Positions 1 to 64,000 of a stretch of DNA of 64,000 nucleotides are shown here, piece after piece (position 1 is the stretch's first letter; each line of letters begins with the position of its first letter). The stretch comes from Reclinomonas americana ATCC 50394 (Eukaryota). The notes beneath the pieces were generated by a model. That model saw only the letters and a program-made list of their open reading frames with translations. It did no database searches and had not been told where the DNA came from. A program made the translations under genes and the position numbers. The DNA lies in the NCBI GenBank assembly GCA_048213135.1, contig PS015173.1, forward strand, positions 1 to 64,000, in the 5' to 3' direction.

Positions 1-2061
1 CTGAAGAGCGATCGTGACACGTTCGAGACTCAGGTGAGCGAGAGACACGCGATACGCCTCTTGTTTGTTCTCGCCGCTGATCCCTGCGAGTAGACGGTGG
101 AGATGGGCCAGATGGTGAAGCGGCTGGAGAGCGAGATTGATCGCATTCGTCGCGAGGGCGACATGGAGCTGGGCATTCTTGTTGCGTCTGTCTCTTCTTC
201 GTTTGTTCACGTACGGGTGAGCTGGCGCTGATACTGCGTGCAGCGACAACATGCCGACACGGAGCGCAACGTGCGTGCCACTGAGCTGACGGAGCTGGCG
301 CAAGCGGCGCAGTCCGAGTATCGGTTACATGATCGCAAGGTGCGGAGCAGACAGAGGGAGGCTGGTGTGGTGTGCGGTGTGCTCATGATGGCCTTGTGCA
401 GCAATCGCTGAGCATACGGCGGGCGCGCATCGTGGAGGAGCTGAAGCATGTGGAGACAAAGACCGCGGTGATCAGCACGACGCCGGCACCGAATGGGATG
501 GTGTCGCTGACTGAGCCGCTGACATCGCGCGTGCAGCGACAGCAAGAGTGCCGCAGTCGCAAGCAGGTGCTTGAGTCGGAGCTGGAGACGTTGCAGCTGG
601 AGGAGTATTGGTTGGAGCAGGATGTTGCGTGTGGAGGGGAGAGATTGAGCTGGTGTGCGAGATTGTTGCACGGACAACTCATCTCGTGCGAGTGACTGCA
701 GACTCTGCGGTTACAACAGTTGCAGGTGAAACGCAAGGCCGACGCCGAGGACACTGTGCGAGCGATTCTCCTCAAGAAGGAAGCAAGGGTTGGCAAGACA
801 GTGTCGTCTGTGTGGTGGGGTGCATATAAAGTGGTTCTCATGGAGAGTGCACGCAGGAACGGGAAATCAACGAGCTGATTCACGGCAAGCAGTTGGAGTT
901 GCAGAGTTTGCGGAGGCGACTCGCCATGCATCAGAAGGAGGGGGTGCGCGATCTACACAACTCGCTTTGTGCCGCTGGGAACTGCAGCTGACTCTCGCTC
1001 TCGCTGTTTGAGCAGTCGGAGAGACTGGCGAAGCGTGGAGCCGAGTTGGAGGCGGAGATTCAGCAGGCCATTCGTGATGCTGGTGATCGCATGCGAGCCG
1101 ACAGGGTGTGTACCATCTGCAAGGCCAGCTGGTACGTGAGTGTGCGCTGGCACTCACGAAAGCCTGCAGGATCGGCAAGTTCGTGAGCAAGCGGAACGGG
1201 AGGCCGATTTTGAGAATGCATGGTATGCGCGACAGAGGTCACTTTCGAAACGCGTGCGCGAGGACGAGGATGTTAGAGTGGCTGCCGAGGTACGTACGAC
1301 CGTGCGACAGATATGTGCGCTGTCACACGCACCTGTGTTGTGACTCGTGGATGCTATTTCTTTTTTCAGGTTGAGGCCGTGGAGCATGAACGAGCAGAAA
1401 AGGAGCTGTGGCAGTGTGTGCAATGTGGCGAGTTCACCTATAATATGGATCCAACCATGTGCAGATACCATGCTGGAGTTGCGCACCTTGACTTTCCATC
1501 TTCTTCTTGTGTCTCGTTGTCTCACCAGGCTCTCGTTGCAGGAGGTACATTGTGCAGTGTTATGCTGGTGATGCAGGTCCCTTACTAACACTGTCTGCTC
1601 TTCATTCCCGTCCACGCCACACAGTATGTGAGTGACTGTCCTCTTGATCACCCCCATTCCTTCACGGTGCTGACATGCATTCTGCAGGCTCCTCAGGTCC
1701 GATGACTGCTTCCATTGCTGCTCTCCTTCTCGTTATTCATCGTGACCCTTTTTGTCTGCTGCATGCAAACAGACGGTTGGCGAGGGAAGAGTGCGTCACA
1801 ACCACACACCCTGTCACTTGCATCGTTCTCAGTTCACTCACCCTTCCCTTCCTCCTCCTCCTCCTCGTCGTCACAGATTCAATTCGTTGTTGCGTACAGC
1901 ACCACCATCATCACCACTCGTCCCACCGCACTGCTCACCCCACGTCACCCACATGCACACAGTGGACGTGCTGCAATCAGACCGGCCACTACGCCCCGAC
2001 TTGTCGCGTCTCCCAACGACACCGACGATACGGCAATCGACCACAACTCACCATTCTCTAG
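1..2061 (+). CDS. 3' part of a multi-exon coiled-coil protein with a C-terminal Cys/His (BTK-motif/CHORD-like) zinc-binding motif
   Basis: Spliced exons give E/R/Q/L-rich heptads (LKSDRDTFETQ-TVEMGQMVKRLESEIDRIRREGDMELGIL-RQHADTER...), then CVQCGEFTYNMDPTMCRYHAG...WTCCNQTGHYAPTC...H and a TAG stop. The 5' end lies outside the window. Confidence 0.65.
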
Positions 2062-2137
2062 AAGCTCTCCCTTTTATGGTCCCTCACGACGATCCTTGTT
2101 TCCCCACCACACTCAAGTACACTACGACTCCTCATCT

Positions 2138-2479
2138 TTACGTACTGGTGGTGGTGGTGGTGGTCGGAGGAGGAGATGATGATGCTTGTTTTCGCTCCGG
2201 AGACTCCTCCAGCGCCTTTTGCGCCATGGCACGAATGCCAGAGAGTGTGTTGGGTGGCCTCTCACCCTCCGCGGGGTACACCACGTACTCGCGCTGTGTG
2301 CATGTGTGCGTCGTATGAGTGACTCAGAGAGAATGATGCATCAGAGATGCGAATGGCGCAACATTGAGAAGGACGCCTTCCAGCACCTCCGGGTGAGTGA
2401 TCACCACAAACGAGGCCACTGGCAGTGTCAGGTAGGTGGCGAACTTGAAGACCTCGAGGAAACCGCGGCGACCAGTCAT
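2138..2479 (-). CDS. PET100: PET100-family cytochrome c oxidase assembly factor (2 exons, intron 2362-2294)
   Basis: MTGRRGFLEVFKFATYLTLPVASFVVITHPEVLEGVLLN|REYVVYPAEGERPPNTLSGIRAMAQKALEE. The LEVFKFxxYLxxP transmembrane motif and NRxYVVYPxExxRPP match PET100 as I recall it from plants and fungi. The spliced product is not in the supplied ORF track. Confidence 0.8.
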
Positions 2480-2555: not shown

Positions 2556-3331
2556 ATGAGGTGCTTAGTGCTGCTCCTGCTGGCACTAGTGGCCTTGTCA
2601 AGTGTGGCGCACGCATTCCCCGCAGGGAGCACGCCACAATGCACAGAGTTGCAGACGTATCAGTTGCGCACACTCTCTCTCTCTCTCTTCTCTCTTCACA
2701 CTCCTCTCTCTTACACACGCGCGAGTGCAGGTTCACATGCGACACACCGTCACCATGCGAGCCCAACAACCTCAGCACACGTTGCGTCTGCACACGCGCA
2801 CTCATTCCCACACACACACACACGCACACTCATCGCAATCAAGCAGAGACATGCACGGTGCGACAGGGCGTCACGTGCACCGGAAGCACCACCTTTACAC
2901 GCAGTCGAGCGTGTGCCTATACGTTGCGTGCGCACACACACACGAGACTCACTTGCTTGTCTGCAAGCTCTCTCACCCCTCCAAACAGGAGCGGTGTTAA
3001 GTTTAGCACGGCGGTGGCGCTGTCGTCCATCTTTGGCGGTCTCGGCTTTGATCGCTGCTACATGGGATACCCGTTCTTGGGCGTGGCCAAGTTTCTGACT
3101 GTTGGTGGAGCACTGGCGTGGGGCTGGCTCGATTTTGTGTTGATCTCCACGCAGGTGACTGGCAAACTCTCGTTTGTTTTGCGTGTTGTCAGTCATTGAT
3201 TGACACGAACACGCGTGTGGCAGGCGATTGGACCGGCGGATGGCACAGCGTGGGATGTGGGACCTGGAGGCCAGCGGTTCTACTCGCTGGGCGGTGATCC
3301 GACGCCACCAGACGGCATGGTGTGGAACTGA
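2556..3331 (+). CDS. TM2-domain protein (TM2D1/BBP-like), 5 exons
   Basis: Signal peptide [20 protein letters not shown], Cys-rich ectodomain, TM2 motif [48 protein letters not shown], then IGPADG. Confidence 0.85.
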
Positions 3332-3384: not shown

Positions 3385-6300
3385 TCATCGCCCGGATCCT
3401 CCCGCCATTCCGCCGTCGCCACCTGGTGCGGCGATTGCGTTGCGCAGGAAGGGGTTTTGCACCTGGCGCACACGGGCACCGAACTGCAACGTCGACAGTG
3501 ATTCGCTGGTGTTCAGGCCGCTCGGGCACACCGTCAGAATCATGACGGTCTTTGAGTTGCCGCCGAGTGTGTCCTGTCACGGAGTGGAAAGAGAGAGTGT
3601 GTGTGTGTGCGTGGTGAGCGACTGGAATGGATAGCATACGGAGAGAGTGACGAGGAGAGCGCACCTGCAACAGCAGCGTGAGCTTGGAGTTGCGGTAGGG
3701 AATGTGCGCTTCGCGATTGGAGAGAGCAGACACGACATCGCCAAGAGCCGACAGGCTCTTGTTGATGTGCATGGCCTCCTTCATGCGATCGCCGCTCGAG
3801 CCCGACTTGGAGATGCGCTCCGAGCCAGCCAGATCCACAAACACCAATTTGCTGCGTGGCGTGGTGAGCGACAAGAAGCGAGAGAGACTGAGAGACATGA
3901 GGAAGCACTTGCAAAACCTCTTGGTGACAAAGCCCTCGCGCTGATGGTGCACGTCCAGATAGAGCGTAAAGATGGTGTGCGACCGTGACGAGCGCACATT
4001 GACGCCCGTGCTGTGGACCTGTCGCAGGCGGTTGCCACGGTCCAACAGATCCAACACCTCGATCGGTGTGTTGGCGTACTTGACGGTGGCATTGTGCACG
4101 TACGAACCAAAGCTGCGCAACAAAGGACGGTGAGCATGAGCAGGCCATCAACAACCCCAACAAGAGCAACACTGCAGCACGCAACATTCCGTTCGACTTG
4201 ACCTCCAGTCGGTGACGTGCCGTGGCCGCCGGACCGGCACCACGCATGGTGGACGCGTTGACGACCGACTCGTCGGCCAGCAGGTCGTGGAACTGATCAA
4301 GGTACAGCTGCGAACGGGACGGTCACAAAGTGTCAGATGCGCGCCGATGAATGCATGTGAATACGACAACACATCACCAACCTCGACCATGGAGCAGCGC
4401 ACAGAGTAGCGCGTGTTCTCCGTCGAGTCGCCCTGTGTCAGCAAGTGGAACAGCTCCTCGACAGCCCGCGACACCACGCCACGGTTCGACGGCTCGCCGT
4501 GAATCGTAAATGTCTTGCCACTGCCCGTCTGCCCGTACGCCATCACGCACACATTGTAGCCGTCAATGGCGCTTTGCATGAGGGGCGCCACTTCGGTGAA
4601 CACATCCTCCTGTGTGTGACGTGGCGAGAACACGCTGTGGAGATGGTAGTGAGGAGGAGGGCAATGAGAAAGAGAGACGATGATGAATGTGAAAGTGAGC
4701 ACACGAACCGGAAAAAGTCGAATGGTCGTGCGCCCGTGGACGTGGTGCGCACCACCACAGTCATGTCGTCCATGAGCTCGACAGCGCCCTCGTCGTAGTC
4801 GCGCGACGGATGTGCCTCCTCTGTGTACATCATGCATAGCAAGAGTGAGACGAGAGAGGTCAACAGCACGAGAAACTGTTTTGCCAGACACCCACCGTGT
4901 GGCAGCGTTGGTCGCATGCGGACAACCACACGAATCGTGCCCTTGAGATCCTCCAGCGTGTTGTGCAGCGACTTGCGCAGACGAGTCTCCTCGCGTAGCC
5001 TGGTCACCAGCATCGTATTCTGTCGCTCCAGCTTCTCCGCACGATCCTTCTCAATGGCGCGCTCCGTGGCGGCATTGACAACCACCGTGGCCAGCTCCAC
5101 ATCGCCATTCGCAATGGCCACCAGCGATTGCCGCAAGTCGTCCACGGCAGCTCGAGCACTTTGCGCCATCTGCATGCCACGAGACAGTTGAGGGGGCGAG
5201 AAAAAACAGAAAAACAGACAATGCGTCAAGACGAACCTGCTCATGCTGATCGGCCGATAATCTGGCCTGATGCAGGTCGCGCTCCATGCTCGCAATGTCG
5301 GCCTTTAGTGTGTCACACGCACTGCGATACCTCGCAATGTTCGACTCCAGTTCGTGAATGGTTTCTGCGTGAGAGCGTGACACAAGGTGGCGATTAGTCG
5401 CGCAAAGAAACACAATCAACAAGGATCATCGCTGACCTTCGTGTCGCTTGTGGAACACATTCTTCTGGTCGGCAAGCTCCTGCATCAGCGACAGCTTCTC
5501 GTCGTTCCACTTGTCCTTGTCTTGCTTCCAGATCTGCGGCGCGATGTTAGGAAGTGGGCTCATCGCGTAGATTGAGTGATGATGCAGTACCATGGTCAAG
5601 ATCTCCGTCTCCTCGCCCCAGTTGCGCAGAATGTGCTCCTTGTCGACCTCCCAGTCACGCTTGCCACTCTGCAGCGCCTGCATCACCTTCTCGCGCTCAC
5701 GAGCCACGAAATCCTATGCCACCACGCGTGGTGGGGTGAGCGTCGACAACAACTGAACCATGCCTCAAAAGGGATGGATGACTGTACCTTTTCAGTGGTG
5801 ACGTTGCGGGTGGACTCGGCATACTTGCGCTTCTCTTCCTCCCACAACTGTCGCTCCTCGTGGATCTTGGCCAGCAGGTGCTGCCGCTCTTGCTCCCACG
5901 TGACGACGGCACTCTCCTTGGCCTCGCCGAGCTTTCGCGCTTCGGCCTCCTTGCGGCGCAGCACCTCGCCACGCTCCATTTTCCAGTTGGTGCGCTCGCG
6001 CTCCACCTGCGGGCGAGAAAAATCAACACAGCTGCGTGCGACGGATGCCAGACCGACGTGCAGGCTATCGAACCTGCGCCACAAGCGAATCACGCTGCTG
6101 GATGAGCGCCGCGCAGCGCTTTCTCCACTCCTCACGCTCCCGCTCAAACTCGGTGACAATCGTGCCGCTGGAGCGATCGAGCTCCTGTCGCAGCCGCTGA
6201 TTCTCCTCAAACAGCTCACGCTTCTGCACCTCGGCCTGACGCAGGATCTCGTGCTTCTCCTGCTCCAGTGCAAAGGCATCGTCGGACGGAATCTCAATGC

Positions 6301-7961
6301 CGGCAATCACCACCGGAGAGCCTGCTGGTCTGAGCATGGCCGTCGCCGGCGACACGGCCCTGAATGGTGAAATGTACTTGGAGCCATTGGCGCTGCCGTT
6401 GGTGGAGGACAGATCGGCGGCGGCGGCGGCGGCGGAGGCATTCACGGACAGTCCCGTGGGCGGCACCGTGGTCATCTCACCCGTCACCGCCGACCACTGC
6501 TGCGAGCGTTGCAGCTGCGAGAACTGATTGCGCAGCTCCTGCTGCTGTCGCTGCAACAGCAGCTGCTCCGCCAGGAACTGCTGCTCACGTGACATGCCGC
6601 TCTCGGCGGGAGCGTTGGCGGGTGACGACAGTGGCGGCGCCTTGGGCGCGGGCCGAGAGGGTCGCCCACCGGGACGACTGACGGGCGACGACAGCGACGA
6701 CTGTCGTTCGCGCTCAGCCTGTTGCGTGGTGAACAACAGAGCTGCAAGGAGGGCCGAGAGTGCACACACACACACGCACACACCTGTCGAGCAACTTCGT
6801 TCTGATGCTGCTGCAACTGCTGGCGAATGAGATCATTCTGCTGCGTCTGCACCTCCTCCATCTTGTGGAATTGCTGCTCGAGCGACAGCGACGGCGCTTG
6901 GCGACTCGGAGGCGGCGACGGACCGCGGCTTGGCAGGTTCGGCACCGGACGCGGCGCAACGTATGTCGTGGCTGTGCGATATGCGTCAGCCGGCAAGAGA
7001 AACCGAACCCACAAGATGAGTGTGAAGAACGCAACGAGACATGGCGTAGCGCGCAAGCATCTCGGCGGCCGACAAGCCACCGGCGGGTGAGGAGCGCTGC
7101 GGTGAGTCGGGACGCGTCGATGACATGGCTCCCACCGGTGTGCCGACGGGCTTGATGGATAGCGCCGACGGCGGTTGTCCGTACAGAATCGAGGCCGGTG
7201 TGGCTTGCGATGCGGGCTCGTCGGACAGATACCGGGCCGGCTGCGGTGGCGCGCCCGACACCACCGGTGGATGCGAGGTGGCATTGATCACCGAGTTGGG
7301 TCGGCTTTCCAGAGGCGAGATGAGAGTGAGGAGGAGATGGAGAGAGATGAAGAGATAAAGTACCTGTCGGTGGTGACACCGGCCACTGGCGTTGAAATGA
7401 GCGCAGAGGGATCGGTCTGCGGCGGCGGTGAAGCACCGGGCTCACGCGGTCCGCGCATCAGCGTCAGCTGCGTGCTGTCATTCAACTCAAAGTCCTTGCC
7501 GGTCCAGTGATCGTGCAACTCACGGCCATTGATCAGCAGCGTCTGGGTGATCGAGTGAGCAAGAGATAAGGATGTGTGTGTATGTGTATGTGGTGAAGAA
7601 ACCTGTTCCTCTGCTGGCACACCGGTGACCTTTTGCAGGTTCTTCTTGATCTTATCGACGCGGAGTCGTTGCAGATCGCTGTGTGTGTTCACCAACGTGA
7701 GACACATTTTGTCGTTCCACCGCGCACACGCGCACACCCACCAAAGATAGAGAGAAGAAGAGAGGGACAGGGGAAGAGAGAGCGCGCACACACAATAAGA
7801 GTGGCGACGCAACGCTTTCTTCAGCACCACTCGATATCGCTTGTTATCGCTGGTCGAGAAGACACTGAACGAGATTTTCTCCTGTGTGTGCACGAGTGAG
7901 TGACTGTGCAAGTGCGAGCGAGGGAGAGAGAGAATGAGAGAAAAGGCACCTCCTCGGCCAT
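3385..7961 (-). CDS. Kinesin-14 (C-terminal motor) with N-terminal ubiquitin-like domain, Pro-rich linker and long coiled coil
   Basis: Neck [24 protein letters not shown]-loop [47 protein letters not shown]. Exons can be joined in frame from [12 protein letters not shown] (ATG 7961) to TGA 3385. Confidence 0.88.
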
Positions 7962-8206
7962 TGCGTTCCGCGTGCGTGTTTTTAGGTGGCCCGGTACGCC
8001 GCGAGCACTGTCCTCTTCCCGGTGCCTTTTCCAATGCGCGCCACTTTCCCATCGCCTTTCATTGGCATCACAATCCTCCTCCCGCACAAGCACACACAAG
8101 CACATTCACCCATTCCTTCGCCCGGGCTGCAATGCAAAAAAGAAGAAGAAAAAAACACGAAAGGCAACACAAAAAAGAGGCCAGCACATTCTTCGCCCGT
8201 TCCTTC

Positions 8207-8512
8207 TCAGTAGTCGTAATAGCCGCCGACTTGCGCGACAAACACATCAATCACATCGCCGTCCTCCAGACCGGCCTCCTGTGCCGTTTGCGCATCCTCC
8301 AGGCGCCTAGTGAGCACGACGAGAGAGAGAGAGTGAGAGACAAGCTGTTTCGTTTGTTTTCGTTTTGCTTACTCCGCGCAACTCTCCGTCAAAGGCAAAT
8401 CGCAGACGTGAGATTTCAATGTCTTGCCTCTTCGCGTAGGCGTTGAAGAGCTTCTTCAGTGGTGTCGATTTCTGCGCAAAGGAGGGAGGAGGGAGGAAGA
8501 GGGAGGGAGAGG

Positions 8513-13239: not shown

Positions 13240-14346
13240 TTACAAGCCGGACGTCAGTTTCGCGCTCGCACTGCACGCGGCGGGAAGTGGCGGGTCCAGG
13301 CGTTGGCAGACCACCGTCAAAAGGTCGTTCTGTGCCTGCAGCTGCAGTGCTTCGGTGTGCACGCCGTTCACAGTCAACCATGGCTGGCAACAGGAGAGAG
13401 TGTGAGCAGTAAATAACACACACGGACGATTTAGTCCAGCAGCGAATATATTGCAACGCAACCACATATCGCAGCGGAGGATTGAGGGCACCCGTGCGCA
13501 CCGCCATCTCGTGCACCAAAAGCGGAGCCTACAGTTGCTGTTGAGAGGGAGAACGCGCAAGGAAAAATAAGCCTACTTCCGCACCTGTGAGCCCTGATAG
13601 CACAGCTGCAGTGTGGCCCACGACAGACCGAGCTGGGTGGCGCACACTTGACCGGCCTGCGCAGCGATGAGAAAGCATGCGACGACAGCAACACAAGCCA
13701 CACACACGCGCTCACTTGGATGGGATTATCGGCGGCTTCCAAGCAAAACGTGTACTCGATCGCCACGGCCGTGCTCGTCATGTTGAATGCGCACGCCTGC
13801 AACGCTTGAGCGTCGCACTCGTCAAACCCATGCGGGCATGTGTAATACCACGTTCTGCGCGTGTGTTGATCACCAGTGTGAGAAGGCAGTGAAACACAAA
13901 GAGAATGCGCGGAAGTGCATGCGAAACTTGCCCATTGGCGATTCGGTGGTATTTCCTGCGCCCGACAATCAGCACACAGACACACTCATGTACACACACA
14001 CGCACTCACCATACGGCACCAGCTCCAGGTTCAATCGCGCACTCATGCCTTCGCCGTGCCACACATCACTCAGTACACCACTGATGAACTGTGCACAAGA
14101 GAGTGAGGACAGAGACGCATGCACACACACAGAGAGACGGAGCACGCAACTGCTTGACTGTACGGGCATCTCGCGGCAAAGTACTGCGCGCGTCACACAC
14201 ATCAGTGTCTTTTCACATTGTGTTTCCCCGCTCTTCGCGCCTTGACTCACCACACCCACGTCCACGGTCTTCACACCGTGCGCAACCGTGGAGGCCACGA
14301 GCACCGCAGCCGCGAGAACGAGCACGAGTGCGACGGCGCGACCCAT
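13240..14346 (-). CDS. IFI30: GILT (gamma-interferon-inducible lysosomal thiol reductase) family, CxxS type
   Basis: Signal peptide; VDVGV|YFAARCPYSQA|FISGVL; LELVPYG; YTCPHGFDECDAQALQACA (GILT signature CQHGxxEC); LNPPLRYV|PWLTVNG. Confidence 0.88.
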
Positions 14347-14398: not shown

Positions 14399-17088
<2,690 letters not shown>

Positions 17089-32401: not shown

Positions 32402-33035
32402 TCAATCCACCACCGTCTTGACGTAGGCGATGCGCAGCTTGCCGTCGGCCAATCGGCGAAACCTATACGTGTTGACCCCATGCTTGCGTATCTCACAACA
32501 GCAGCAGCAAAAGAGAAACCACTTGACACGAGCAGAGTACTGCCATTGCACCTCGGCCTCGAGCACCTCCACCCCACCACTGCCGTCGTCAGCAGTGATC
32601 GACGACTTGAAGTGATAACTGTCGATATCCACGTTCGCTCCGACTCGGCTATATCGCAGACACGATCGCATGAACGAGAAGGAACGCTCAACGTGCGCCA
32701 CATACGCCTCAATGCCATGCCGCGTGGCCGAAGGATCTGCACTCAGACAGAGAGAATGATTCTCCGCTCGCAACGCTCACATGCAAGAGTGCGAGACGCA
32801 ACAGTCGGCCACCACATCGTCAGTCATGATGGCGCGCAGGGCATCCGAGTCTAACACACGCAGCGCAGAGTGAGAGACAAAGAGAGAGGCAACGATCGGA
32901 ACAACTCACCACCGGGTGAACAATTGGCCTCTGCAACAACGCAGCATAAGCATCCTCAACAAACAAGAGAGAGGATCGACGCACGCAACGAAAGTAAGCC
33001 TCAATGAGCGCCCTTGCCTCTTCGTGTTCAGTCAT
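32402..33035 (-). CDS. SnoaL/NTF2-like fold protein (4 exons)
   Basis: MTEHEEARALIEAYF|QANCSPG|DSDALRAIMTDDVVAD|YPSATRHGIEAYV...GVNTYRFRRLADGKLRIAYVKT matches the pattern of SnoaL-like domains. Confidence 0.65.
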
Positions 33036-37991: not shown

Positions 37992-41887
<3,896 letters not shown>

Positions 41888-47191: not shown

Positions 47192-47782
47192 TTACTCGGG
47201 ACGAGCAAACTCAGTGAGCGCCGCCTCAAACCTGCACATGCACGACGTGTGAGTGTGCAGTTGTCCCAAGCACAAACATTGGCAAAAAAACGCAACTCAG
47301 ACATGAGGGTGGTGAACTCCTTGATGTGGCGCACGTTCTTGGCGTCGAGGTGCTTGAACGAGGCCTCCACAGTGCCAAACAGCGAGTTCAAGTTGACCAG
47401 CGCACGCTCCAACACAGTGCGGCTGCGCGGGTTCTCGGCACGGCGACCACCGCGTGTCTGGTGCATGCGCATCGAGGTCAGCGCGGCCTCCAGCACACCG
47501 GCATCGGACGAGCTCTGCTTGGCCTGCTCATGCACACACACAGCGTGAGTGGCTCTCTGTGTGATCACTCTGGTCGAGTGCGCGCCTAGTCACCTTGTTC
47601 ACGTGGCGGAGCAGCTGGCGCCAGCTGCGATAGTCGGCGCGGGCCTTCTCGTACAGGGCAGAGGCATCACCCAGGGCTCCCTCGTTGCCAGCGTCCTCGG
47701 CAGAGACGGCAGCGTAGGCGGTGGTGGCGGCCAGAGCGCACAACACCAGCAACAGGAGGAGTGTTCGCACAGAGATGATCAT
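47192..47782 (-). CDS. Secreted alpha-helical protein, copy 2
   Basis: MIISVRTLLLLLVLCALAATTAYA; YEKARADYRSWRQLLRHVNK|AKQSSSDAGVLEAALTSMRMHQTRGGRRAENPRSRTVLERAL...EFTTLMSE|FEAALTEFARPE*. Confidence 0.75.
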
Positions 47783-52700: not shown

Positions 52701-55700
52701 CACTCACGAGAGTGCTGCGGCGCGTGTAAGTGGAGCTCTGATCGACTTGCTTCTCGCTGACACCAGGAGTAGACCGGTTAGTGTTGTGCCTTTGGTGACT
52801 CAATCCCTCCGCTTGCTCACGTTGTCGCTGCGCAGGACCACATTGTGGAGCGTCTGGAGGCTGTGGTTGACGCAGCCAGCGAAAGCGTATGCCGTGACCA
52901 GGTCATGCAGGCCTTTTGGCATCATTGGGCTGCGCGAGTCGACGGACTGCGTCCCAGTGTGCTGCGGGGGTGAGGCACTCTACCTTCCACATTTCGGTCT
53001 GTTCACCCAGGCGACTCACATTGCCGCGGCTACAGTGTGCTTTCGTCGAGAAAGCTGAAGACTCTGCAGTTGGCGTCGCACTTTGTGTCGGAGGAGGGCC
53101 GTGTGCACATTCAGATATGGGCACGCACGTTGGAACCCGACACGCTGTTCCTGACCGTGAATGCCATCAGCGACGCCATTGACACCAGCCGGGTTAATAC
53201 CTTGCACCCCTTGCTCGTCAACGTGATTGAGGGACTGGCCTCGGTTCCTGGTGCTACTCGCCCAGTTGACACGTCGCTCGCTGCTATACTGCGCATCCCC
53301 GAAAGTCTCATTTCAGTGCGTGCCTATACCAGAGCGCTGTTTTGCGTCATGTAGTAGCGCTCATCTCGTGTTGTCATGTTGCTTGTTGCCTGCAGCTGTG
53401 TCGCCGCATCCAAATGGCCGAACACAGACCTGTCATTCAGGCTGCCTTTGAGAAGGTGACACACAGAGACTGCATGCGGCCAAGTGCACTATTACTGTGT
53501 CTCTGACCGCGCTTCTCCGTGTGAATGCAGCTGCTTCGTGAGTTCCGACCGCGTCAAGTCACCGCTGTCCTCCAACGCGTGTCATTGCAAGTGGGTCTAT
53601 GGAGAGACATGTCGGATGCCGCGCAACGCATCGCCTCGGCCAGTATGATGGTGACACTGTTGCATCAGACTGTACTCCACCTGTGCCAGCGGAATGGGTT
53701 GGTTCGTGAGATGATGATCACGCAGACACGTTTGATGTACCATAACATGCTGACTTTTCTTCTGGCAGACGCCAACTCAACAACACGAAATCATGATCGA
53801 TTGCTGCAACGAAATGGCCCTCAACCCAGAGTTGTCTCTGCTGGAGGTCATCTTCACACTCATCGCATTCGGCGACGCCGTGAGAGACTCGGCCGCCATT
53901 CTCCCGCTGGCCACGCAGCTCAATCACGTGGCGCGCTGGGGTCGTACTCGACTCAGTCGCCTGCCACTTGGCTACAGGGAACTGCAATACCCCAAACATT
54001 TTGAGGCGCAGTTCGTCCAGGTACACACTCGTTCATTCATTCGTTGCTCTCTTTGTTTGTCCTCATCATCTCGGTTTTGTCGCACAGTTGCAAGATGGTG
54101 TCGTATGCTGGGGAGATCGCATCCTCCGTCGCTTGCTTTCCGAAGATGATGTGCTTGCCATCTGCGCCGGTGTCGATGGCTTCAACCAGCTGTGTGAGTG
54201 CTTCATTGCGTCTCTGATTCCTGTGGTTCCCGATGCTTATGTTCTGCTCGCCTTCGTGCGGCCCCTTTTTTTAATCACACAGGCGCCACATGTGGCGTGA
54301 GGCTTGTCGTCAATCCCGCTGAGTTGCAGCAGGCGGTGGAGCGTGCAAAGGTTGCACACGAGCGACTCGAGCTGGCCTGGGAGTGGCTGCGTGGTCACCA
54401 GATTGCCGGCGCAGAGGGTCCTATTGAACCGGTGAGTTGGATTTTTGCCATGCGCGTGTATTGTGTTGCTTTCATACTCAATCTGTCACGCGGTGGTCCT
54501 GTCGCAGTGGAATCGGACCACCATGATATCAGACGCCGACTTTGCAGCACAGCGATGTGCCAACGATCTCCGCCTCGATGAGAGACAGTTTCGCGCGCTG
54601 CATTACTTCCTCGGCCACAAGGTCTGTGCGAGGCTGAAGTGCTGCATTCTACTCTCCCCGTCTGTGCGCTCATCCGTACGTTGTAGAGCATTCTCTTCCG
54701 CAGTTTCTTGGAAGACGAACTTGCGGGTGTTCGCGGCCAGGCCATTGGTTCCACTCAATTCGGGCAGATGGTGACGCGCACCGAACATCGCCTGCATGCT
54801 CTCATCGAAGACAGCCGTGTGCGACTGGCCGATCTTCAAGGCCTGCAACAAGTGACGCGTATTGCTGGTGCCGGCCGTGCTTTCCAAGCCGAGCTGACAC
54901 TAATGTTGCGCGCGCCCGCATGTTGTTGTGTTGCTTTGCCAGTCCTTGTGCCTCACTTGCTCTTTACAGCTCCTCGTACTTCAACGGCAACATGGACGAT
55001 GTGCGCCGTGTGACAGACGCGGAGATTCAACAGCGCATTGAGCGTCTTCAGTGCGCCACCAATGTTCTCGCTGCACGCTCACAGCTCCCAGCACTTCTCC
55101 AGTGCTTGCGCTCGATGAACTTGATGGGAGCGCCGGAAGTTGGCGTCCTCGTTGCGCGTGCGCACGACCTACTGGACGGTGACTCGGACCAGTGGACGTT
55201 GGCTCACGTGCAGCAGTTCCACGAGTCGCTGGTGCAGGCCCTGAATCCTCTCAGCATTGCGCATCTCGACTTCTTTGGTTTGTTCCTCCGATGCAGCAGT
55301 GTGCAGTTGTGTTGCTTTCTGATTCCTGCACAATCCATTGCAGTGGTGGTTGAGCAGGCGCACCCTCTCATCGAGTTCTTGCGTGGCGAGAACGAGTCCA
55401 TCCATGCCATCTTCGACAAGCTCAACACCAATGTCGGACATGCGGGCATTCAGCGGGAGCTGCTGAACGAAGTGCAGGCGGCGTATCCACTGCTGGCGCC
55501 GCTTTTGCGCCCGAACTGCACTTTCCATGAATTGGCGCGCCACATTCGTGGTCGTCTACAAGATGGCCGTGACGGAGCGATGCAGTTGCAGGTGTGGCGT
55601 CTGCGTGCGGTGTGTGTGTGCACTCGTGTCTTTGTACTGACGCTTCGGTGAATGTAGTGTGTTGTGCGCAGTGCGCAGAATCTGACGCAGATCCAGCTGC

Positions 55701-58700
55701 TGTTCCGGGAACGCGATGACGTGAAAATGGAGGACTTGTTGCCGCAAGTTGCGCACCATTGCTGGTGACGGCGAGTTGGGAAGGTCTGCTTGCCCACGCC
55801 AGCGTGCTTTCTTGTGTCATGCAGGTCGTGTTGCTGGTCGAACGAGGCGTGTTTGTGTCGACGCTGCGCGGCAGTCAGATGAAACGCGACACGCTCTCCA
55901 TCTTCTACGATTCGGAGCGCGCAGAAGGCGTTCCTGAGCGCGTACACCTCTCCACTGAACAGTTTGAGGATCTGGTTCGTTGCTGCTGCTATCGCTTATC
56001 GTTCCCTTTTGCTTCCCTTCCATTCACTCACGATCCGACGGCAGTTGCGTGGGGCTGTCATGTGCGAGAGTGAGGCACGGGACGAGCGCGATCGCGAACA
56101 TTTGCAGCAATTTACGGAGGCCATTGGAATCGCTCGTGCCTGCCATCACCTCCGCCTGGCATTGGAGACGGCCGGTCACCCCAACTTCCAGGGCTTGTCG
56201 ACCCCCCTCATTGCAGCGCGTGGTCTCTCGCTGCCACAATTGCGCCGTGCGCAGGAGGAACTGCAGGCCGATCTCGGCGCCTGGAATGGTCGCTTGTCCG
56301 CTAGTCGCCAGCAGTGCAAACCGCTGTACTTGCTGGACACCAGGCAGTTGCTGGTGAGTGTTGTGATCGATCTGGCGGCACGGTCCGACTATTGCGTGCC
56401 TCGACTAAACAACCAAATGACACAGGCCCTCGTGCGCCACTTGAACGAGTTTTCGCGCGCGGCTGCAGCCCCGGGTGCGGCTGGCGGATCGACCGATCTG
56501 CGTGTGGTCGTACTCAAGGCGTACCTCATCGCGTGCTATCCGGAGGTGGCACCCGATCGCTTTGATTCAGTTTCGGTGCTCGGGGCTTTGCAGTCTGTCA
56601 TTGATGGCAGACTGCAAGATTTGGATGCGGCCGTTGCTTTTGTGCAGGCTGGTGGTCAGGCGGTTGGCGTGGTGGAAGATCCGTTTGCCGAAGGTTTGTT
56701 GTCAGCTTGTGTTTGTACGTGCAAGTTGCTGTGCATATATCTGTTGACATTCCTCAATCCTTCACAAAAGAAGGTAACTTTGTGGCGCCAACTGTGTACT
56801 CGGTCTTGCAAGCTGGTCGTGCCGAGGTCTCGCGACTGCTGTTTGAGCTGTTCGGAAAACCGCCGCATCCATCGTGCGTGCTTCCATGCTCCAGCTCGAC
56901 CACGTTTGAAGATGTTGCGTGGCGTCGCGTCCCCGAGGATACGTGTTGTGTGGACAAAATTATTGCTCACGTGTGTGCGGCTGTAGCTCGAGGCATTCTT
57001 GCAACGAGCACAACAATTCTCTGCACTGTTCTTTGCCGTGGTTGGCGTCAATCGGCTCTCATTTGCCGTGCGAGAGCATCTCCTGACGAAACTCACCGAG
57101 ATTGTGGAGGCCAAGCCGCGCGCACCGCTGGCGCAGTTGTACCTTATTTTCACCGAAAAGCAGGGTATGTGCATGTTCACAGGTCTTGTCATTTTGCTGC
57201 GCATGTTATTCACTGCGCACGCATCGCTTTCCGATTGGCCAGGGCTGGACGTGTTCAGTTTCCTGGATCGCGAGGAGCGCACGTCTCAGCAGCTGATGTC
57301 CACGAATCAGTTCCGCGACATTTGTGTCCAGCGCTTCCAGGCCAACCACATCGGCAAGTTCAAGCTGGTGACTGGCGCAGTGGGTGATGGCAAGTCGCAC
57401 TTTATCCGAAAGCGTTTGACGAAGGTGCCTGCGGATGATCCTGCTGCTGCCGATCAGCTGCTCACCTTCACGGTGCCCGTGAACGAGGACTTTAGTCCGT
57501 CGCTGTTCATTCGACACCTGCGCAAGCGAACTGATGCGGCCCAGGTGCGCGTGCACGTGAACGTGTCCCCGTTTGCACCTTGGGACGAATTCGACAGTGC
57601 CTTGGCGCAACTACTGCTCCACGGTGTCGTCCATGACCCCAACACTGGTGAGATGGTGTGCACGACGGGAGCTGCGGGGCTCTCGGTGTGGCGTCTGTAT
57701 GTTGAGATTCCAGTTGGGCCGAACCCGGAGGATCCACTGGCCGTGCAAGACATTCCAGAAACAGAGGCCATTGTACAACGTCTGGCGCCGATGCTGGCCT
57801 TTGGCACGCAGCGCCATGTGACTCCGGATGAGGCCTTTGACATTGATGCCAATGCGCGACTCGTGGCCTCGTACGCACGGCTGTACTACAACAACGCGTG
57901 GGCACAGTGGGCGCAGGCCGACGATTTGCAGGCTGCGCTGCCGGCTGTCGACGACGCTGAGTGCCTGCAGTTGCTGACGCGAGTGTGGACAGAAGGGTGT
58001 CGAAATGTTGCGTAAAGTTGCAGACGGCGCACGTTCAAGTCTGCCCTTCCTCACATTTCTGTCGTGCAGGTGCCGCCCGTGAAGATCTCGCGCCACAATC
58101 TTGTGCTGCTGCTGGCGGAGCGTGTACCTTTCATTGTACGCTTGGTTCGCTACCATCGCGCGATGATGTCGTGGGACCCGCCGGGCCTTGTGGCGCTGCC
58201 GCTGAACGACTACGCTTCCATCTTTGAGTGCTTCCTCGACGAGTGCAACGCCTTCTGCAATCCCGATCTGCGCTCAGACTGGTCATCGTTCAGCCACGGG
58301 TACACGTGTCGGGACTTTGACGAGGCGGCGCCAGAGNNNNNNNNNNNNNNNNNNNNNNNNNNNNNNNNNNNNNNNNNNNNNNNNNNNNNNNNNNNNNNNN
58401 NNNNNNNNNNNNNNNNNNNNNNNNNNNNNNNNNNNNNNNNNNNNNNNNNNNNNNNNNNNNNNNNNNNNNNNNNNNNNNNNNNNNNNNNNNNNNNNNNNNN
58501 NNNNNNNNNNNNNNNNNNNNNNNNNNNNNNNNNNNNNNNNNNNNNNNNNNNNNNNNNNNNNNNNNNNNNNNNNNNNNNNNNNNNNNNNNNNNNNNNNNNN
58601 NNNNNNNNNNNNNNNNNNNNNNNNNNNNNNNNNNNNNNNNNNNNNNNNNNNNNNNNNNNNNNNNNNNNNNNNNNNNNNNNNNNNNNNNNNNNNNNNNNNN

Positions 58701-61700
58701 NNNNNNNNNNNNNNNNNNNNNNNNNNNNNNNNNNNNNNNNNNNNNNNNNNNNNNNNNNNNNNNNNNNNNNNNNNNNNNNNNNNNNNNNNNNNNNNNNNNN
58801 NNNNNNNNNNNNNNNNNNNNNNNNNNNNNNNNNNNNNNNNNNNNNNNNNNNNNNNNNNNNNNNNNNNNNNNNNNNNNNNNNNNNNNNNNNNNNNNNNNNN
58901 NNNNNNNNNNNNNNNNNNNNNNNNNNNNNNNNNNNNNNNNNNNNNNNNNNNNNNNNNNNNNNNNNNNNNNNNNNNNNNNNNNNNNNNNNNNNNNNNNNNN
59001 NNNNNNNNNNNNNNNNNNNNNNNNNNNNNNNNNNNNNNNNNNNNNNNNNNNNNNNNNNNNNNNNNNNNNNNNNNNNNNNNNNNNNNNNNNNNNNNNNNNN
59101 NNNNNNNNNNNNNNNNNNNNNNNNNNNNNNNNNNNNNNNNNNNNNNNNNNNNNNNNNNNNNNNNNNNNNNNNNNNTCCAGCAGCACTTCGTGCAGCAAGA
59201 AGTGCTGCAGCTCGAAGCGCAGATCTGGTCGCACCACACTCTGCTGGTTGATCACCTCCGAGAAGAGAATCAACAGCTCGGTCTTGCCGACACCAGTGTC
59301 TGCACACATAGGCCCCCATGACCCAGTCAGTTACTACGATAGAGAAAACACATAGCAATGCCACAGACAGAGATAGCCTACCGCCCGACAGAACAACATT
59401 CATGCCGACTTTCCGGCGCTCGTTCAGGATGAGCAACTTGATGGCAAAGTCCTGAACACAAGGTGAGCAATGCACAGTGAAATATGCGCAAGACAACGAG
59501 TGCAAACCTTGGTGAGCGTGTACTGCATCCGGTCGGTGATGGCCTTGAGGCGCTCGGCGTGTCGCGACATGCCGAGTCCAATGTTGAGTTCCGAACGGAG
59601 ACGTCCCGTGTGTGCGTGCGCCTCGCGCCCCGTGAGCACGTTCTTGTAGCCATGCGACATTCGCTCGGCCTCGTGCGCCGTGTCGGCATTCAGGCAGAGC
59701 ACGGTCAACTACATGATCAAGCGAAGCGTTAGCAACTACCGCAGCATCAGAGGCGTACGAATTCTTGGCTGTCACTTTACCTGCGCCATGGGAACTCCGT
59801 CGGNNNNNNNNNNNNNNNNNNNNTGGCGAGGGGAATCTCTCGCAAGAGACATTCGGTGACTACTGCAACATGGATGGTGCAGTGCCGCGGCTCGCCCGCC
59901 CGGAAATGGTGATGCTGGCGCTGATTTCTTACATCCTCGCTGTTGGTTGCTCACGATGCGCTGACGCAGAGCCTGGATGAGCTGCACCGCCTGATCGGTG
60001 TCAACATTCCGGAGGACTATCCCAACATGACTGACGGTGAGTGTGCTTTAATGTCATGATGGCGGCAGACGTTTTGTCTGTGCAGGTGTTCACAATAACG
60101 CACCTCTGCTTGTGGGTATCCTCTCAGGCATCACTCGCAAAATGCGCGAGTTTGCACGCGACCTCTGTGCAAGGTTCCCGATTCTGGAGGTCACTGAAGA
60201 CTTCCAGGCTCGCATCGAAGGTCGCATTCCCATGACGGTGTGTATGCTAGCTCGCCAGTGCGCGAAAGCGGCCTAGTTTGCTTACCGCTCTTGTTTGTAG
60301 AGCCGATTCGAACTCGAAGAGTTTGTTCACGACTTTATCCATTTGCAACCGCGTCAAATCTTCTTCAAGACGACCATTGTTGCGTGTGTCGACGAGTGCT
60401 TTCATTGTCCGTTACTTTGCTGACGAGTGCAATGCTGCGCAGCACGAGGGCATTACCGCGTCCACCTTTGTGGAGTGGCTGCGCAGTGGACCCATTCGAG
60501 CGGCTGAGGAGATGCCCGGCACCGTGATTGTGTGTTTCATCGACGAGGAGAACACGTCGCACATTCACGGCGCAGCAAAGGAGGTGTGGCTGCCCCGCTA
60601 TCAACGGCGAAAGTTGCTGTTGCTGACACGAGCTTGTATGTGATGTAGGCTATGGTGGATGGCATGCTGGACGGCGAGCCGCTGCCTGCCAATATCTTCT
60701 TCGTGGCTGCAATCAACCCGCCGCGTCTTCGTCGAGCCGATGAGCGAGACCAACTGCGGTCGCAAAGCCGCATGGCGGACGTGGACGAAGCAGCTGCTGC
60801 CAATGCGCCACGCAACGTGCTCAGTGACAGTGACCGCGACTTTGTCACGTACGCACTGCCGGCGTCGTTGGAGTCGCTGACACTCAACTACGACGAATTG
60901 ACTGCCGCACAAGAGCGTGCGTAGCGTATGTGTGTGTGTTTATATCTTTCGGTGGTTAGTTGCTCACGTATTCTGCAGATGCCTTTGCGGAGCGCCTCAT
61001 TGAGGAGCGCGCCCTCCCGCTGTCAGATGAGCTGCCGAGTCCTAGGTATCGCGAGTTGCAGCAGCTGCAGCGCACGGAGCGTGAATCGCTGCTGGCCATG
61101 ATTCTAGTGGGCCAGAAATTTGTTCGCACCGACGCCAAGCTGCACCGTGTTCGTGTCTCCATTCGCGACCTGGTCCGCGCCGAGACACTGTATCGGTGTG
61201 TGTTACATGTATATCTCTACGGGGAAAGAGCGTGTTTTGTGTTTCGTTTCTGACAACGGTGTAGATTTTTCGTCGCCGGTATACCGCCGGTGCTGTCGCC
61301 TGGAGACGATGTGCTGAACGAGTACGAACTGCGCCAGCAGCTGCACTGGAAGGCCGTTACCATGGCTGTCAGTCTCACCTACTACTTGCGCCTGACACCG
61401 GAGCTTCGTATTCAGTTCGAGCGCAAGATCAACGACTGCGCGGCGCGTCTCCGTGGTCGCCCGCACAACTACAACTTTTCGGAGTGGGAGAGGGATGAGA
61501 TGACCTACTTCTGCAGTCAGATGCACGTGAGTGTTGGACAGTGTCGTCGGTGTGCGTGTTTGCGTTCATGCGATTGGTGGTGTCTCACTCGTATGGGTTC
61601 GACGATCAGCTTCCGCCCGGTATTGCGCTCACTCGCGGTTTGAAGGAAAATGTTACGTCTGCATGCTGAGATGTGTGGTGTGTGCGCCGCTAATATGATG

Positions 61701-64000
61701 AATGTGTGCGCGACACAGCTTTTTGCGTGCTGCGTGTGCATGGAAGCAGGCCTTCCGCTTAACATTGTCGGCGAGCCGGGCACCGCCAAGACACTCTCGT
61801 TTGGCGTGGCCGTCAGTAACATGGGAACTGTTGGTCGCGGACAGACCCTCCTTTCGGCGTTCCGTCGCGTGAAGCCATTCCACTACCAAGCGAGGTATGA
61901 ATTTTGCGTTCCTGCCAACAAAATAATGGAACCCGCCGCTGACTCGCTCCGTGTGTCTCGTGTGCAGCAAGGACAGCTCGGCCGCTGAGATCGAATCCGT
62001 GTTCCAGAACGCCATTGATCTCCAGCGCCGCATGCGCAATCTCAATGGCGAGCAGTGCGTGGTATTCCTCGACGAAGCCGGTCAGTTGTGCCGTACCCTA
62101 CCCCCCGATGTCCAAGTTCTTGCTGAGTTGCCTTCATTGTTGTTTCAGGTCTGCCGTCACAGCGCAAGCAGGCACTGAAGGTCACCCATGCCTATCTGGA
62201 CCATCCGGTCGTGTCTTCTGTGTTTTTGTCCAACACGACACTCGACGCAGCGTGAGTAATTGTGTACGCCCGCTGTCTCTTTTGTGGTGCTCTCGTTCTC
62301 AACAGTTTTGACATTACAGCAAGACGAATCGCATGATCCAAGTGCTGCGCCCGCTCTCGTCGGAGGCCGAACTACGCGAGCTCGCGCACGGCTTCCTCAC
62401 CGACAATTCACCGCAGGCAGCCACTCCGTACCTCGAGGCGCTTGCGGAGGGGCTGTGCAGGGGATTCAAGCGTGTGGTTGAGTTTGCCGATAACCTCTTC
62501 CACATGCGCGATTTCGTGTACTTTTTGCGGTATCTGCGACGAGCCGCCTCTCGTGACGGCGCTCTGGGCGATCAGGTGCGAGTGTGCATTTGCTTGCGGT
62601 GAGAGTGCTGCCCCGCTGTGCCCAAGAATGGCTCTTGTACTGCGCAGTTTGTCGTGTCGGTCGAACACTTTGTGGCCGGCGTGTATCGCAACTTTGGTGG
62701 CATTCCGTCTCACCGATTGCGCCAGGTGCTCCTTTTTTTGTTGTGCGCACGTGATCGTTTCAGTGGCATTGGTGGCTCACCGAGTCGTGTGTAACATTGG
62801 CCAGCTGTGTGACATGTTTGTTGACGAGGTGAACCGTGCAATCGTGGAAAGGTTCGACCCTCCTCCTGAGCACATGCTGCTGCTGATCGACGAGCGGCGT
62901 ATGCAAGACTTCTCGGTGGTCAACGCCCTGCGTGGCAGCCTGGAGGAAAGGCTGAAGGAGGACGAGGACCCGAATCAGGTGTGCAATGTGATGCGCACGC
63001 GTGTGTGTGTGCGCCGTTGACGACTGACGATGTGTGTTGCTCGTGTTCGTCCACGTAGGCCCCGTTCCGCTACACCCTGCTTATCGACCCGACCGAGTCG
63101 CAGCTGTCGGTGCAGCTGCTGTACGACCTCAAGAGTGCGTATAAAACTGAAACCGTAGCTATCGAGTGTGTACTGACCAGGCGAATCTCTCTCTCTCTCT
63201 CTCTTTTGTCAGTTGTGGATCCTGATCGCACGGTGGTGCGATGTGTCACTGCGGATTTCGAGCGTGATGACGACCAGCTTGTCAATCGGCCTTTGGTTCT
63301 TGCTCGCATTGTCGACGCCATGCTCAAGGGTCAGACGGTGGTTCTCATCAACGTTGCGTCTCTCTCTCTCCTGCTGGTCGTCTTGTGGCTTCCTGGATTG
63401 CCAACGAGTCTCGAAACAATCACACAGGGTGCGACCATCTTTACATCGTTGTACGATGTCTTCAATCGGCACTTCATGTGCGTCAAGGGCCAGTACTATG
63501 GTGTGTCACCAACAGTGCGCAATGTCTTAGTTGTTGATATTTACCTCCTTTGTTCCTCGCAGCCAATGTGGCCATCGGAGCCATGTCGCGCTACGTTGTC
63601 GGTGAATATCACTCTTGTCTGTCCCTTAGACTTCTTCGTGTTGTCCACTACTGACACTGTCCGTTGGGTGGCTAGTGCATCGCGATTTCCGTGTCATTGT
63701 CCACTTGCCACTCAAGTCGTTGCCTACTACGCCGCTGCCGTTCTTGAATCGGTGTGTAGCCATGCCCTGTTTTTGTGTGAGTGCAAACTTGCGTGCGCTA
63801 ACTCTCGCCACCTCGTCAGCTTTGAGAAATTCGTTCTTGGTGCCACCGACGGTTTGTAATGCAAGAGGCACCATCCGCGATGTTTGATTCTGATGAAAGC
63901 TTCCATTTGATACATCACTTAGTGCTGGACGAGATGCTGCTTGATCCACGAGTCGCACGCATCCCGACCGTGGACGGTGGATCGGCGCCGCTGTTGCGCG
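49704..64000 (+). CDS. RNF213: Giant RNF213/mysterin-like multi-AAA+ protein (continues beyond the window)
   Basis: LVTGAVGDGKSH; YTLTK|DFAIKLLILNERRKVGMNVVLSG|DTGVGKTEL; HEGIT; FIDEENTS; MVDGMLDGEPLPANIFFVAAINP; VSIRDLVRA; GLKEN|LFA; VGEPGTAKTLS; VVFLDEA|GL; SNTTLDAA|KTNR; FHMRDFVYF; SLYDVFN; VHRDFRVIV; PFLNR|FEK. The motif order matches the RNF213 AAA core. Assigning the low-complexity 5' exons (49704-51500) to the same gene is tentative. Confidence 0.85.

Follow-up and report, generated by a model that had tools for sequence, protein, structure and literature searches.

Can a genome use two kinds of 5′ splice site side by side in its ordinary introns, one of them displaced by a single base? 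The question is raised by the first 64,000 nucleotides (nt) of contig PS015173.1 of Reclinomonas americana ATCC 50394 (assembly GCA_048213135.1), the whole of which we call the window: eukaryotic DNA with a G+C content of 57% and 13 runs of N, dense in genes and introns. A sequence-only reading of it had listed 39 introns that begin with GTTGCG, and had taken them for a major class of donors in which the usual consensus stands one base further into the intron. Judged from sequence comparison, GTTGCG followed by T, less often by C, is a genuine 5′ splice site, the commonest donor hexamer, and the start of roughly one intron in five.

The motif itself was found at all 39 listed positions, 22 on the plus strand and 17 on the minus strand. 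Counted on both strands of the window, GTTGCG occurs 93 times, which is 1.15% of the 8120 GT sites, next to 88 occurrences of GTGCGT, 73 of GTGAGT and 50-54 each of GTTGCA, GTTGCC and GTTGCT. Among the GTTGCGT heptamers 34/43 are listed or model-chosen donors; for GTTGCGC the figure is 7/31.

Introns were fixed with a custom protein-to-genome aligner, in which an intron is allowed only as GT..AG and all other donor bases go unscored. The kinesin gene aligned to Logan protein P0013 gave 11 well-supported introns, and a separate enumeration of in-frame GT-AG pairs returned the identical 11 junctions; P0013 is the best protein match of the motor exon, at 60% identity, ahead of sequences from Naegleria, Acrasis, Willaertia and Andalucia at 49-53%. 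Alignment of the kinesin N-terminal domain with P0095, P0022 and P0029 added two further introns. An ABCD transporter compared with P0121 and P0123 yielded 10 well-supported introns, not counting three in the unaligned N-terminal part and one whose alignment has a gap of 9 residues. The large AAA gene of the window, which we take to be RNF213-like, supplied 13 usable introns against P0125 and P0126, once junctions with gaps or with fewer than about 8 identities in the 24 flanking residues had been left out; the junction at 63501, although it has a gap of 9 residues, was retained, as the two homologues place it alike. One more intron, at 8382 on the minus strand in a SUMO-like gene, is fixed by Pfam coordinates, since Rad60-SLD runs across it as profile position 48, a split codon, and position 50. 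The same coordinate test was uninformative at the downstream exon of a PET100-like gene, at a 14-codon exon of a PAP2 phosphatase gene, which is too short, and at GILT-like exons.

The 37 introns fixed in this way by spliced alignment and the one Pfam test have diverse donors, 24 hexamers in all, among which GTTGCG ranks first with seven introns, three of them on the minus strand (8382, 7813 and 4185) and four on the plus strand (35038, 35675, 56914 and 63353). The next most frequent hexamers, GTTCGT, GTGAGT and GTGTGT, have three introns each. For the intron at 4185 the GTTGCG site is the sole in-phase GT available for its acceptor. An eighth intron, at 61652 on the plus strand, begins with the related hexamer GTTACG. 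The ordinary donors had been summarised as GTGCG, GTGAG and GTACG, a description that proves too narrow, for the validated set also holds GTTCGT, GTTGGT, GTTTGC, GTTTTG, GTACAG and GTCAGC.

A dynamic-programming (DP) gene finder was run on GT..AG boundaries, an acceptor matrix, codon usage and intron composition minus the first 10 nt of each intron. GTTGCG was the commonest donor hexamer in these donor-agnostic models at every stringency, in 19/210, 19/163, 15/105 and 14/69 introns, a share that climbs with the intron penalty; 19/163 against the base rate of 1.15% is roughly a 10-fold enrichment (binomial p=8e-14). A self-trained run, with a donor term on positions +3 to +6 only, placed GTTGCG at 30/168 introns, GTGCGT at 13 and GTGAGT at 9. 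Early versions of the finder under-predicted on codon scores alone (34 introns) or over-predicted at a low intron penalty (237). The sister hexamers were rarely used as donors, with one GTTGCA among the 237 model-chosen introns and one GTTGCT among the 168. The finder is imperfect, and its models were used for enrichment only, not for fine description; a per-site composite score passes 979 of 7808 GT sites and is therefore unfit to classify single sites. With the introns fixed by homology or by a profile hidden Markov model (HMM), the enrichment in donor-agnostic models upholds the view of GTTGCG(T/C) as a real, frequent and discrete donor class.

The discreteness of the class lies in its anchor positions. 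A G at −1 precedes none of the eight validated members, GTTACG included, and 26 of the 29 other validated donors (Fisher p=4.3e-6). At +5 the G is present in 0/8 of the class and 24/29 of the others, and all eight class members have G at +6, just as had been described for the listed sites. The model set, for which donor scoring took no account of position −1, has −1G in 1/30 class introns and 79/138 others (p=1.7e-8). Across the 39 listed sites, position −1 is A in 12, C in 14, T in 11 and G in 2, and at +7 there are 32 T and 7 C, a bias absent from the 53 unlisted GTTGCG sites (T 11, C 23, A 10, G 9). T at +3 by itself is not what sets the class apart, since it occurs in 8/29 validated ordinary donors (GTTCGT, GTTCGA, GTTGGT, GTTTGC, GTTTTG and GTTTCT) and all eight of these keep −1G. 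The three ordinary validated donors that lack −1G, GTACGT, GTGAGT and GTGCGT, are strong intronic matches. The anchoring Gs thus stand at −1 and +5 in ordinary donors and at +1 and +6 in the class, five steps apart in both cases: the GTTGCG class is discrete, with its anchor Gs displaced one base into the intron.

Among the validated ordinary donors, in the regions 3400-8000 (minus strand), 33500-36200 (plus strand) and 56800-63900 (plus strand), are unusual hexamers such as GTACAG, GTACTG, GTCAGC, GTTTTG and GTGAAT, nearly always with −1G.

As to the individual sites, seven of the 39 listed are validated by homology or HMM, 20 appear in at least one donor-agnostic run and 27 in the self-trained run, and the union of these is 30/39; the models also chose three unlisted GTTGCG sites, at 20028 and 19873 on the minus strand and at 31480 on the plus strand. 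GTTGCG donors are intermixed with ordinary ones in most genes of the window, in agreement with the sequence-only reading. The genes recognised are a kinesin-14 with an N-terminal ubiquitin-like domain, SUMO-like, PET100-like and TM2-domain genes, and thioredoxin/PDI, DUF908, ARID, ABCD transporter, PAP2 phosphatase, MORN-repeat, SMN-like and RNF213-like AAA genes. The sites are given below with what bears on each; composite ranks refer to the 93 GTTGCG sites of the window. On the plus strand they are as follows.

181..243, plus strand: GTTGCG intron, listed; donor-agnostic DP at one stringency and self-trained DP.
624..719, plus strand: GTTGCG intron, listed, acceptor uncertain; donor-agnostic DP at one stringency and self-trained DP.
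1478..1541, plus strand: GTTGCG intron, listed; self-trained DP only.
1889..1962, plus strand: GTTGCG site, listed, unsupported; motif present, composite rank 91/93.
2663..2730, plus strand: TM2 gene, GTTGCG intron 1, listed; 68 nt, required for the frame from the ATG at 2556.
2781..2846, plus strand: TM2 gene, GTTGCG intron 2, listed, candidate; 66 nt, in frame and stop-free, frame uninformative.
2923..2988, plus strand: TM2 gene, GTTGCG intron 3, listed, candidate; 66 nt in frame, same acceptor by composite score.
14495..14603, plus strand: thioredoxin/PDI GTTGCG intron, listed; all four donor-agnostic DP runs.
24406..24481, plus strand: GTTGCG site, listed, weak support; composite rank 23 only.
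25112..25193, plus strand: GTTGCG intron, listed; all four donor-agnostic DP runs, composite rank 1.
29974..30053, plus strand: ARID gene GTTGCG intron, listed; self-trained DP.
31480..31544, plus strand: GTTGCG intron, unlisted; two donor-agnostic DP runs and self-trained DP.
35038..35096, plus strand: ABCD GTTGCG intron, listed; P0121, gap-free within 10 residues, identical 1/10 and 10/10.
35038..35096, plus strand: the same ABCD intron; P0123, 2 gap positions on the upstream side, identical 1/10 and 9/10.
35675..35743, plus strand: ABCD GTTGCG intron, listed; P0121 alignment, 9/10 identical on either side, gap-free.
40567..40629, plus strand: MORN-repeat GTTGCG intron, listed; all four donor-agnostic DP runs.
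41270..41340, plus strand: GTTGCG site, listed, unsupported; composite rank 55.
44683..44738, plus strand: GTTGCG intron, listed; three donor-agnostic DP runs.
54905..54969, plus strand: RNF213-like GTTGCG intron, listed; all four donor-agnostic DP runs.
55748..55824, plus strand: RNF213-like GTTGCG intron, listed; all four donor-agnostic DP runs.
56914..56986, plus strand: RNF213-like GTTGCG intron, listed; P0125 alignment gap-free, identical 4/12 and 7/12.
58007..58069, plus strand: GTTGCG site, listed, unsupported; composite rank 33, the P0125 alignment taking another, weakly supported junction.
60379..60442, plus strand: GTTGCG intron, listed; two donor-agnostic DP runs and self-trained DP.
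61652..61718, plus strand: GTTACG variant intron, unlisted, with a GTTACGT donor lacking −1G; P0125 and P0126 alignments gap-free.
63353..63427, plus strand: RNF213-like GTTGCG intron, listed; P0125 (identical 8/12 and 6/12) and P0126, gap-free.

Those on the minus strand are the following.

2294..2362, minus strand: PET100-like GTTGCG intron, listed; self-trained DP, the upstream exon being Pfam Pet100 positions 6-33.
4113..4185, minus strand: kinesin-14 motor GTTGCG intron, listed; sole in-phase GT for the acceptor, P0013 length match.
6972..7035, minus strand: kinesin-14 GTTGCG intron, listed; all four donor-agnostic DP runs.
7679..7813, minus strand: kinesin-14 ubiquitin-like domain GTTGCG intron, listed; one gap-free junction with P0095, P0022 and P0029 alike.
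8307..8382, minus strand: SUMO-like gene GTTGCGC intron, listed; Pfam Rad60-SLD 48, split codon, 50.
13384..13462, minus strand: GTTGCG intron, listed; one donor-agnostic DP run.
14089..14150, minus strand: GTTGCG site, listed, weak support; composite rank 20 only.
19405..19474, minus strand: DUF908 gene GTTGCG intron, listed; all four donor-agnostic DP runs.
19787..19873, minus strand: GTTGCG intron, unlisted; all four donor-agnostic DP runs.
19959..20028, minus strand: GTTGCGA intron, unlisted; all four donor-agnostic DP runs.
21232..21308, minus strand: DUF908 gene GTTGCG intron, listed; all four donor-agnostic DP runs.
22485..22561, minus strand: GTTGCG site, listed, weak support; composite rank 17 only.
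32737..32802, minus strand: GTTGCG intron, listed; self-trained DP.
32931..32989, minus strand: GTTGCG intron, listed; two donor-agnostic DP runs.
36509..36577, minus strand: PAP2 GTTGCG intron 3′ of the 14-codon exon, listed; all four donor-agnostic DP runs.
36620..36690, minus strand: PAP2 GTTGCG intron, listed; all four donor-agnostic DP runs, the Pfam PAP2 match (22-104/130) ending at the last residue before the donor.
42496..42559, minus strand: SMN-like GTTGCG intron, listed; self-trained DP.
42964..43043, minus strand: SMN-like GTTGCG intron, listed; three donor-agnostic DP runs.
47232..47296, minus strand: GTTGCG site, listed, weak support; composite rank 18 only.

The TM2 gene had been put forward as a case of three such introns in a row. 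Splicing out the three listed introns together with one GTGACT intron does give a single open reading frame that opens with the ATG at 2556 and closes with a stop, and to that extent the claim holds; the frame needs the first of them only, and the other two are not independently fixed. Introns 2 and 3 are each 66 nt long, in frame and stop-free, so that the reading frame cannot test them, and a homologue search with a TM2 exon returned zero matches. The variant GTTACGT at 61652 resembles a shifted GTACGT, and may be among the further variants that the sequence-only reading had mentioned.

Other features of these genes were noted in passing. The 14-codon exon of the PAP2 phosphatase gene (36578-36619, minus strand) is flanked by two GTTGCG introns. 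A small exon of the thioredoxin/PDI gene at about 14777-14801 (plus strand, within 14664-14927) carries the first half of the active-site motif, and its flanking donors are GTTGGT and GTGAGT. The N-terminal ubiquitin-like domain of the kinesin-14 (7372-7905, minus strand) is also present in the Naegleria and Andalucia homologues, which hints at a relationship with Discoba. A metagenome scan with a kinesin exon found no related DNA. The RNF213-like AAA/P-loop gene (49600-64000, plus strand) is very large and extends past the end of the window; the relatives found by a search with one of its exons all have at most 36% identity, some of them being proteins of 4100-5100 residues, and two were usable for some junctions. 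Two DUF908 gene exons, compared with the sequences in the PDB, brought no useful match. The neighbouring predicted exons 47299-47568 and 48698-48961 (both on the minus strand) encode closely similar peptides and may reflect a tandem gene duplicate.

Beyond the donor, the class resembles the other introns of the window. Its introns are about 55-135 nt long, with a median in the model set of 70 nt against 74 nt in the others, and the intron phases are similar. A CTNAY branch motif lies within the last 30 nt in 22/30 class introns and 77/138 others, at a median distance from the acceptor of 18.5 and 17 nt, respectively, and the acceptor is CAG in 28/30 and 113/138. Pairing of the donor with the 3′ end of its own intron was considered by eye only, with no count made, and no enrichment was noticed at the acceptors. 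Two special intron types were considered and rejected. For U12-type introns the donor would be RTATCCTT and not GTTGCG[TC], and the branch is CTNAY as in the other introns, not the U12 branch TCCTTAAC near the acceptor; for introners, an all-against-all blastn of the 39 introns produced low-complexity matches and two self-overlaps only. With ordinary branch points and acceptors and no sequence in common beyond the donor, they are neither U12-type introns nor introners. On these comparisons the GTTGCG introns are ordinary U2-type GT-AG introns that appear to differ only in how the donor is read.

Microsatellites of (CA)n, (CT)n or (GT)n lie inside many introns, for example in 2663-2990 (plus strand), 8385-8620 (minus strand) and 3574-3664 (minus strand), and the most frequent hexamers of the window are GTGTGT/ACACAC and GAGAGA/TCTCTC.

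How such a donor might be recognised can be considered from the pairing of U1 small nuclear RNA (snRNA). Both anchoring Gs have moved by one base with their spacing kept, which is the geometry of a shifted U1 register. U1 would then pair one register over, with G+1 in the slot of the exonic −1G and U+2 mismatched, and U+3 to U+7 would pair in place of the normal +2 to +6; the cut would afterwards be set at GU by U6 and U5. We favour, with rather more belief than doubt, a shifted-register reading by U1, likely with a changed box or with a second U1; U1 as the reader is itself inferred. The shifted +1 register had been proposed from the sequence alone, with a modified spliceosome as its presumed basis, and the displaced Gs and the missing −1G agree with the register; a simple shift on an unchanged U1 leaves the GCG core unexplained. 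Because GCG or ACG, rather than GAG, forms the core in nearly all cases, the U1 box probably has a G opposite the donor C, in an ACGUAC-like form, unless a second U1 species takes this role. Pairing energies computed with ViennaRNA duplexfold give an ACGUAC-type box a 5-bp shifted helix of −4.2 kcal/mol with GUUGCGU and GUUACGU alike, and −1.2 kcal/mol with GUUGAGU. A box of this type, as yet a prediction, is thus a likely fit to the observed usage and to the validated GTTACG variant.

Several results weigh against the class as described or against its shifted reading. The textbook U1 5′ end forms no stable duplex with GUUGCGU lacking −1G (+0.5 kcal/mol), with the ordinary validated donor types that were tried lying between −4.2 and −12.2 kcal/mol, and it favours GUUGAGU (−2.7 kcal/mol), which is scarcely used: 2/28 GTTGAG sites pass the composite score, compared with 30/91 for GTTGCG, and the self-trained model chose GTTGAG once. 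This preference for a donor that is hardly used is why a simple shift on an unchanged U1 does not explain the core. There is no preference for A at −1 (12/39), and hence no visible exon pairing in the shifted register, although the corresponding −2A preference of the ordinary class is itself weak (50/138, model set), which makes this a test of low power. A G in front of GTT is uncommon generally (239/1471), so that the low −1G of the class expresses a lack of enrichment more than active avoidance. The gene finder made errors: it recovered 17 to 19 of the 24 introns validated at that time, often took a neighbouring in-phase GT, as at 4185 and 63353, and suggested a "GTTTCG" variant class that was dropped as a false donor from a skipped small PDI exon. 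Lastly, nine of the 39 listed sites are without model support, namely six on the plus strand (1889, 2781, 2923, 24406, 41270 and 58007) and three on the minus strand (14150, 22561 and 47296); on the donor-independent composite score 22561, 47296, 14150 and 24406 rank 17th-23rd of 93, and the other five 33rd-91st.

Rather unlikely, though still a live rival, is a dedicated or co-evolved U1, present alone or together with a standard U1, that has a 5′ end complementary to GUUGCGU (for instance with A where C8 faces +1G) and which reads the donor in the canonical register. It overlaps the shifted-register reading and differs from it by requiring a second U1 species. The failure of the textbook U1 end to form a stable duplex with the class consensus speaks for it, as do the −10.3 kcal/mol that duplexfold gives a hypothetical complementary box and the rigidity of the motif over 7 nt with no exon contribution, as for a well-matched guide. 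Changed boxes have precedents in Entamoeba and Mastigamoeba, and the text of the same account describes both standard and modified U1 variants in Physarum (10.1101/2022.06.08.495308), which keeps the dedicated second U1 in play. A second U1 is, however, unneeded if one ACGUAC-type U1 serves both classes, and none is found among the window sequences: an Rfam scan of the window returned no U1, U5 or U6 snRNA genes at gathering score.

The resemblance of GTTGCGT to GTGCGT plus one T suggests another reading, in which U1 pairs with −1G, +1G and +2U, U+3 (or U+2) is bulged, and G+4 to U+7 take the pairing positions of +3 to +6. Other validated donors also look like one-base insertions (GTTTTG beside GTTTGC, GTACAG beside GTAAGT-like sites), and a bulge at +2/+3 is documented in human cells, with 68 predicted and 54 curated sites in the text of PMC4856993. 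Such a register would leave C9 of U1 free for −1G, yet −1G is found in 0/8 validated, 2/39 listed and 1/30 model-chosen members; its absence disfavours the bulge, which we regard as improbable.

Slightly less probable still is that no special reading exists, donors being degenerate (GT plus little else) and GTTGCG a compositional favourite. The 24 hexamers among 37 fixed introns and the T at +3 in 8/29 ordinary donors are in keeping with this, but independent positions cannot put 19% of introns on one hexamer without both near-constant Gs, the dependence among −1, +5, +6 and +7 is strong, and GTTGCA, GTTGCC and GTTGCT, each more than half as common as GTTGCG (50-54 vs 93), are scarcely used as donors. 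Finally, that the sites are chance motifs and not introns, or are cut one base downstream with a non-GT start, has very little to recommend it beyond the nine unsupported sites and the change of at most one residue that a one-base downstream move of both boundaries makes at several validated junctions, given seven homology- or HMM-fixed junctions, the roughly 10-fold enrichment in donor-agnostic models, a CAG acceptor at the expected place in 28/30 and a GT-AG fit in all cases.

The same one-base ambiguity means that protein homology formally allows a cut after the G. We know of no precedent for an intron starting with TT with its acceptor one base past AG, and cleavage most likely occurs in front of GTT, as GT-AG parsimony, the reading frames and homology suggest. 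Returning to the shifted register, we put forward tentatively a fuller picture of two codes in one major spliceosome: a degenerate, exon-anchored G/GT..G code, and a rigid intronic code of 7 nt, GTTGCGT/GTTACGT, one base off-register, which a changed or second U1 would read, with the additional base at +3 accepted by U6 and Prp8 in roughly every fifth intron.

Shifted and bulged U1 registers are otherwise rare rescue modes, at human sites that number from a few dozen to some thousands, and here such a geometry seems to be a standing second code, in about every fifth intron and nearly every gene of the window. Should RNA data show this to be true, the organism would offer a natural system for how the cleavage site is fixed with U1 off-register, and would bear on the slack that the U6 ACAGAGA helix and the catalytic centre have at +3 to +6, as well as on the co-evolution of snRNA boxes with donor classes. 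Gene finders trained on a single donor matrix would mis-splice a fifth of the introns in such a genome; since our donor-agnostic models often took a neighbouring in-phase GT, the protein sets predicted for this lineage likely carry small frame-neutral errors. A literature search, with figure logos and supplements outside it, found no genome described with a GTTGCG donor class or with the shifted register as a major donor type. What seems new here is that a known recognition geometry, rare elsewhere, has been promoted to a standing second code in U2-type GT-AG introns.

The nearest known system is in human cells, in which shifted U1 registers exist (Tan et al. 2016, PMC4856993, citing Roca and Krainer 2009). 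As that text presents it, the human shifted +1 register shares with the present class the GUU start, the consensus block one base in (+6G, +7U), the lack of −1G and the cut at GU; it differs in being rare and exceptional and in its AAGU-type core, a good match to standard U1, whereas GTTGCG is the commonest hexamer here (7/37 validated introns; 19/163 to 30/168 in the models) and its GCG/ACG core pairs poorly with standard U1. The human bulge +2/+3 register (Roca et al. 2012, as cited in PMC4856993) also has one extra U relative to an ordinary donor, and in that description keeps the −1G pairing that is absent here (0/8, 2/39). U12-type introns are alike in their rigid 7-nt intronic donor, in not needing −1G and in standing alongside a degenerate major class; the share of the class here is far above their usual <0.5%, the figure given in the text of PMC4856993.

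Among other lineages, GC-rich picoalgae (Ostreococcus, Micromonas) and Thecamonas have GYGCGY donors with a standard U1 (Irimia and Roy 2008; 10.1101/2022.06.08.495308). The ordinary class here likewise peaks at GTGCGT, with C at +4; the passages of these accounts that deal with the donors describe one register and do not mention a GTTGCG class. U1 box and donor have co-evolved in Entamoeba (GUUUGUU with AACAAAC) and Mastigamoeba (GUGCGC with ACGUAC), as described in the text of 10.1101/2022.06.08.495308, and these systems offer a likeness in a lineage-specific donor that has U at +3 and a preferred base at +7, and a precedent for a change of the U1 box. In Entamoeba, according to the same text, the atypical donor is found in about 88-90% of introns, in the normal register and in an intron-poor genome; the class described here makes up 7-8 of 37 validated introns, and the two codes occur in the same intron-dense genes, one of them displaced by a base.

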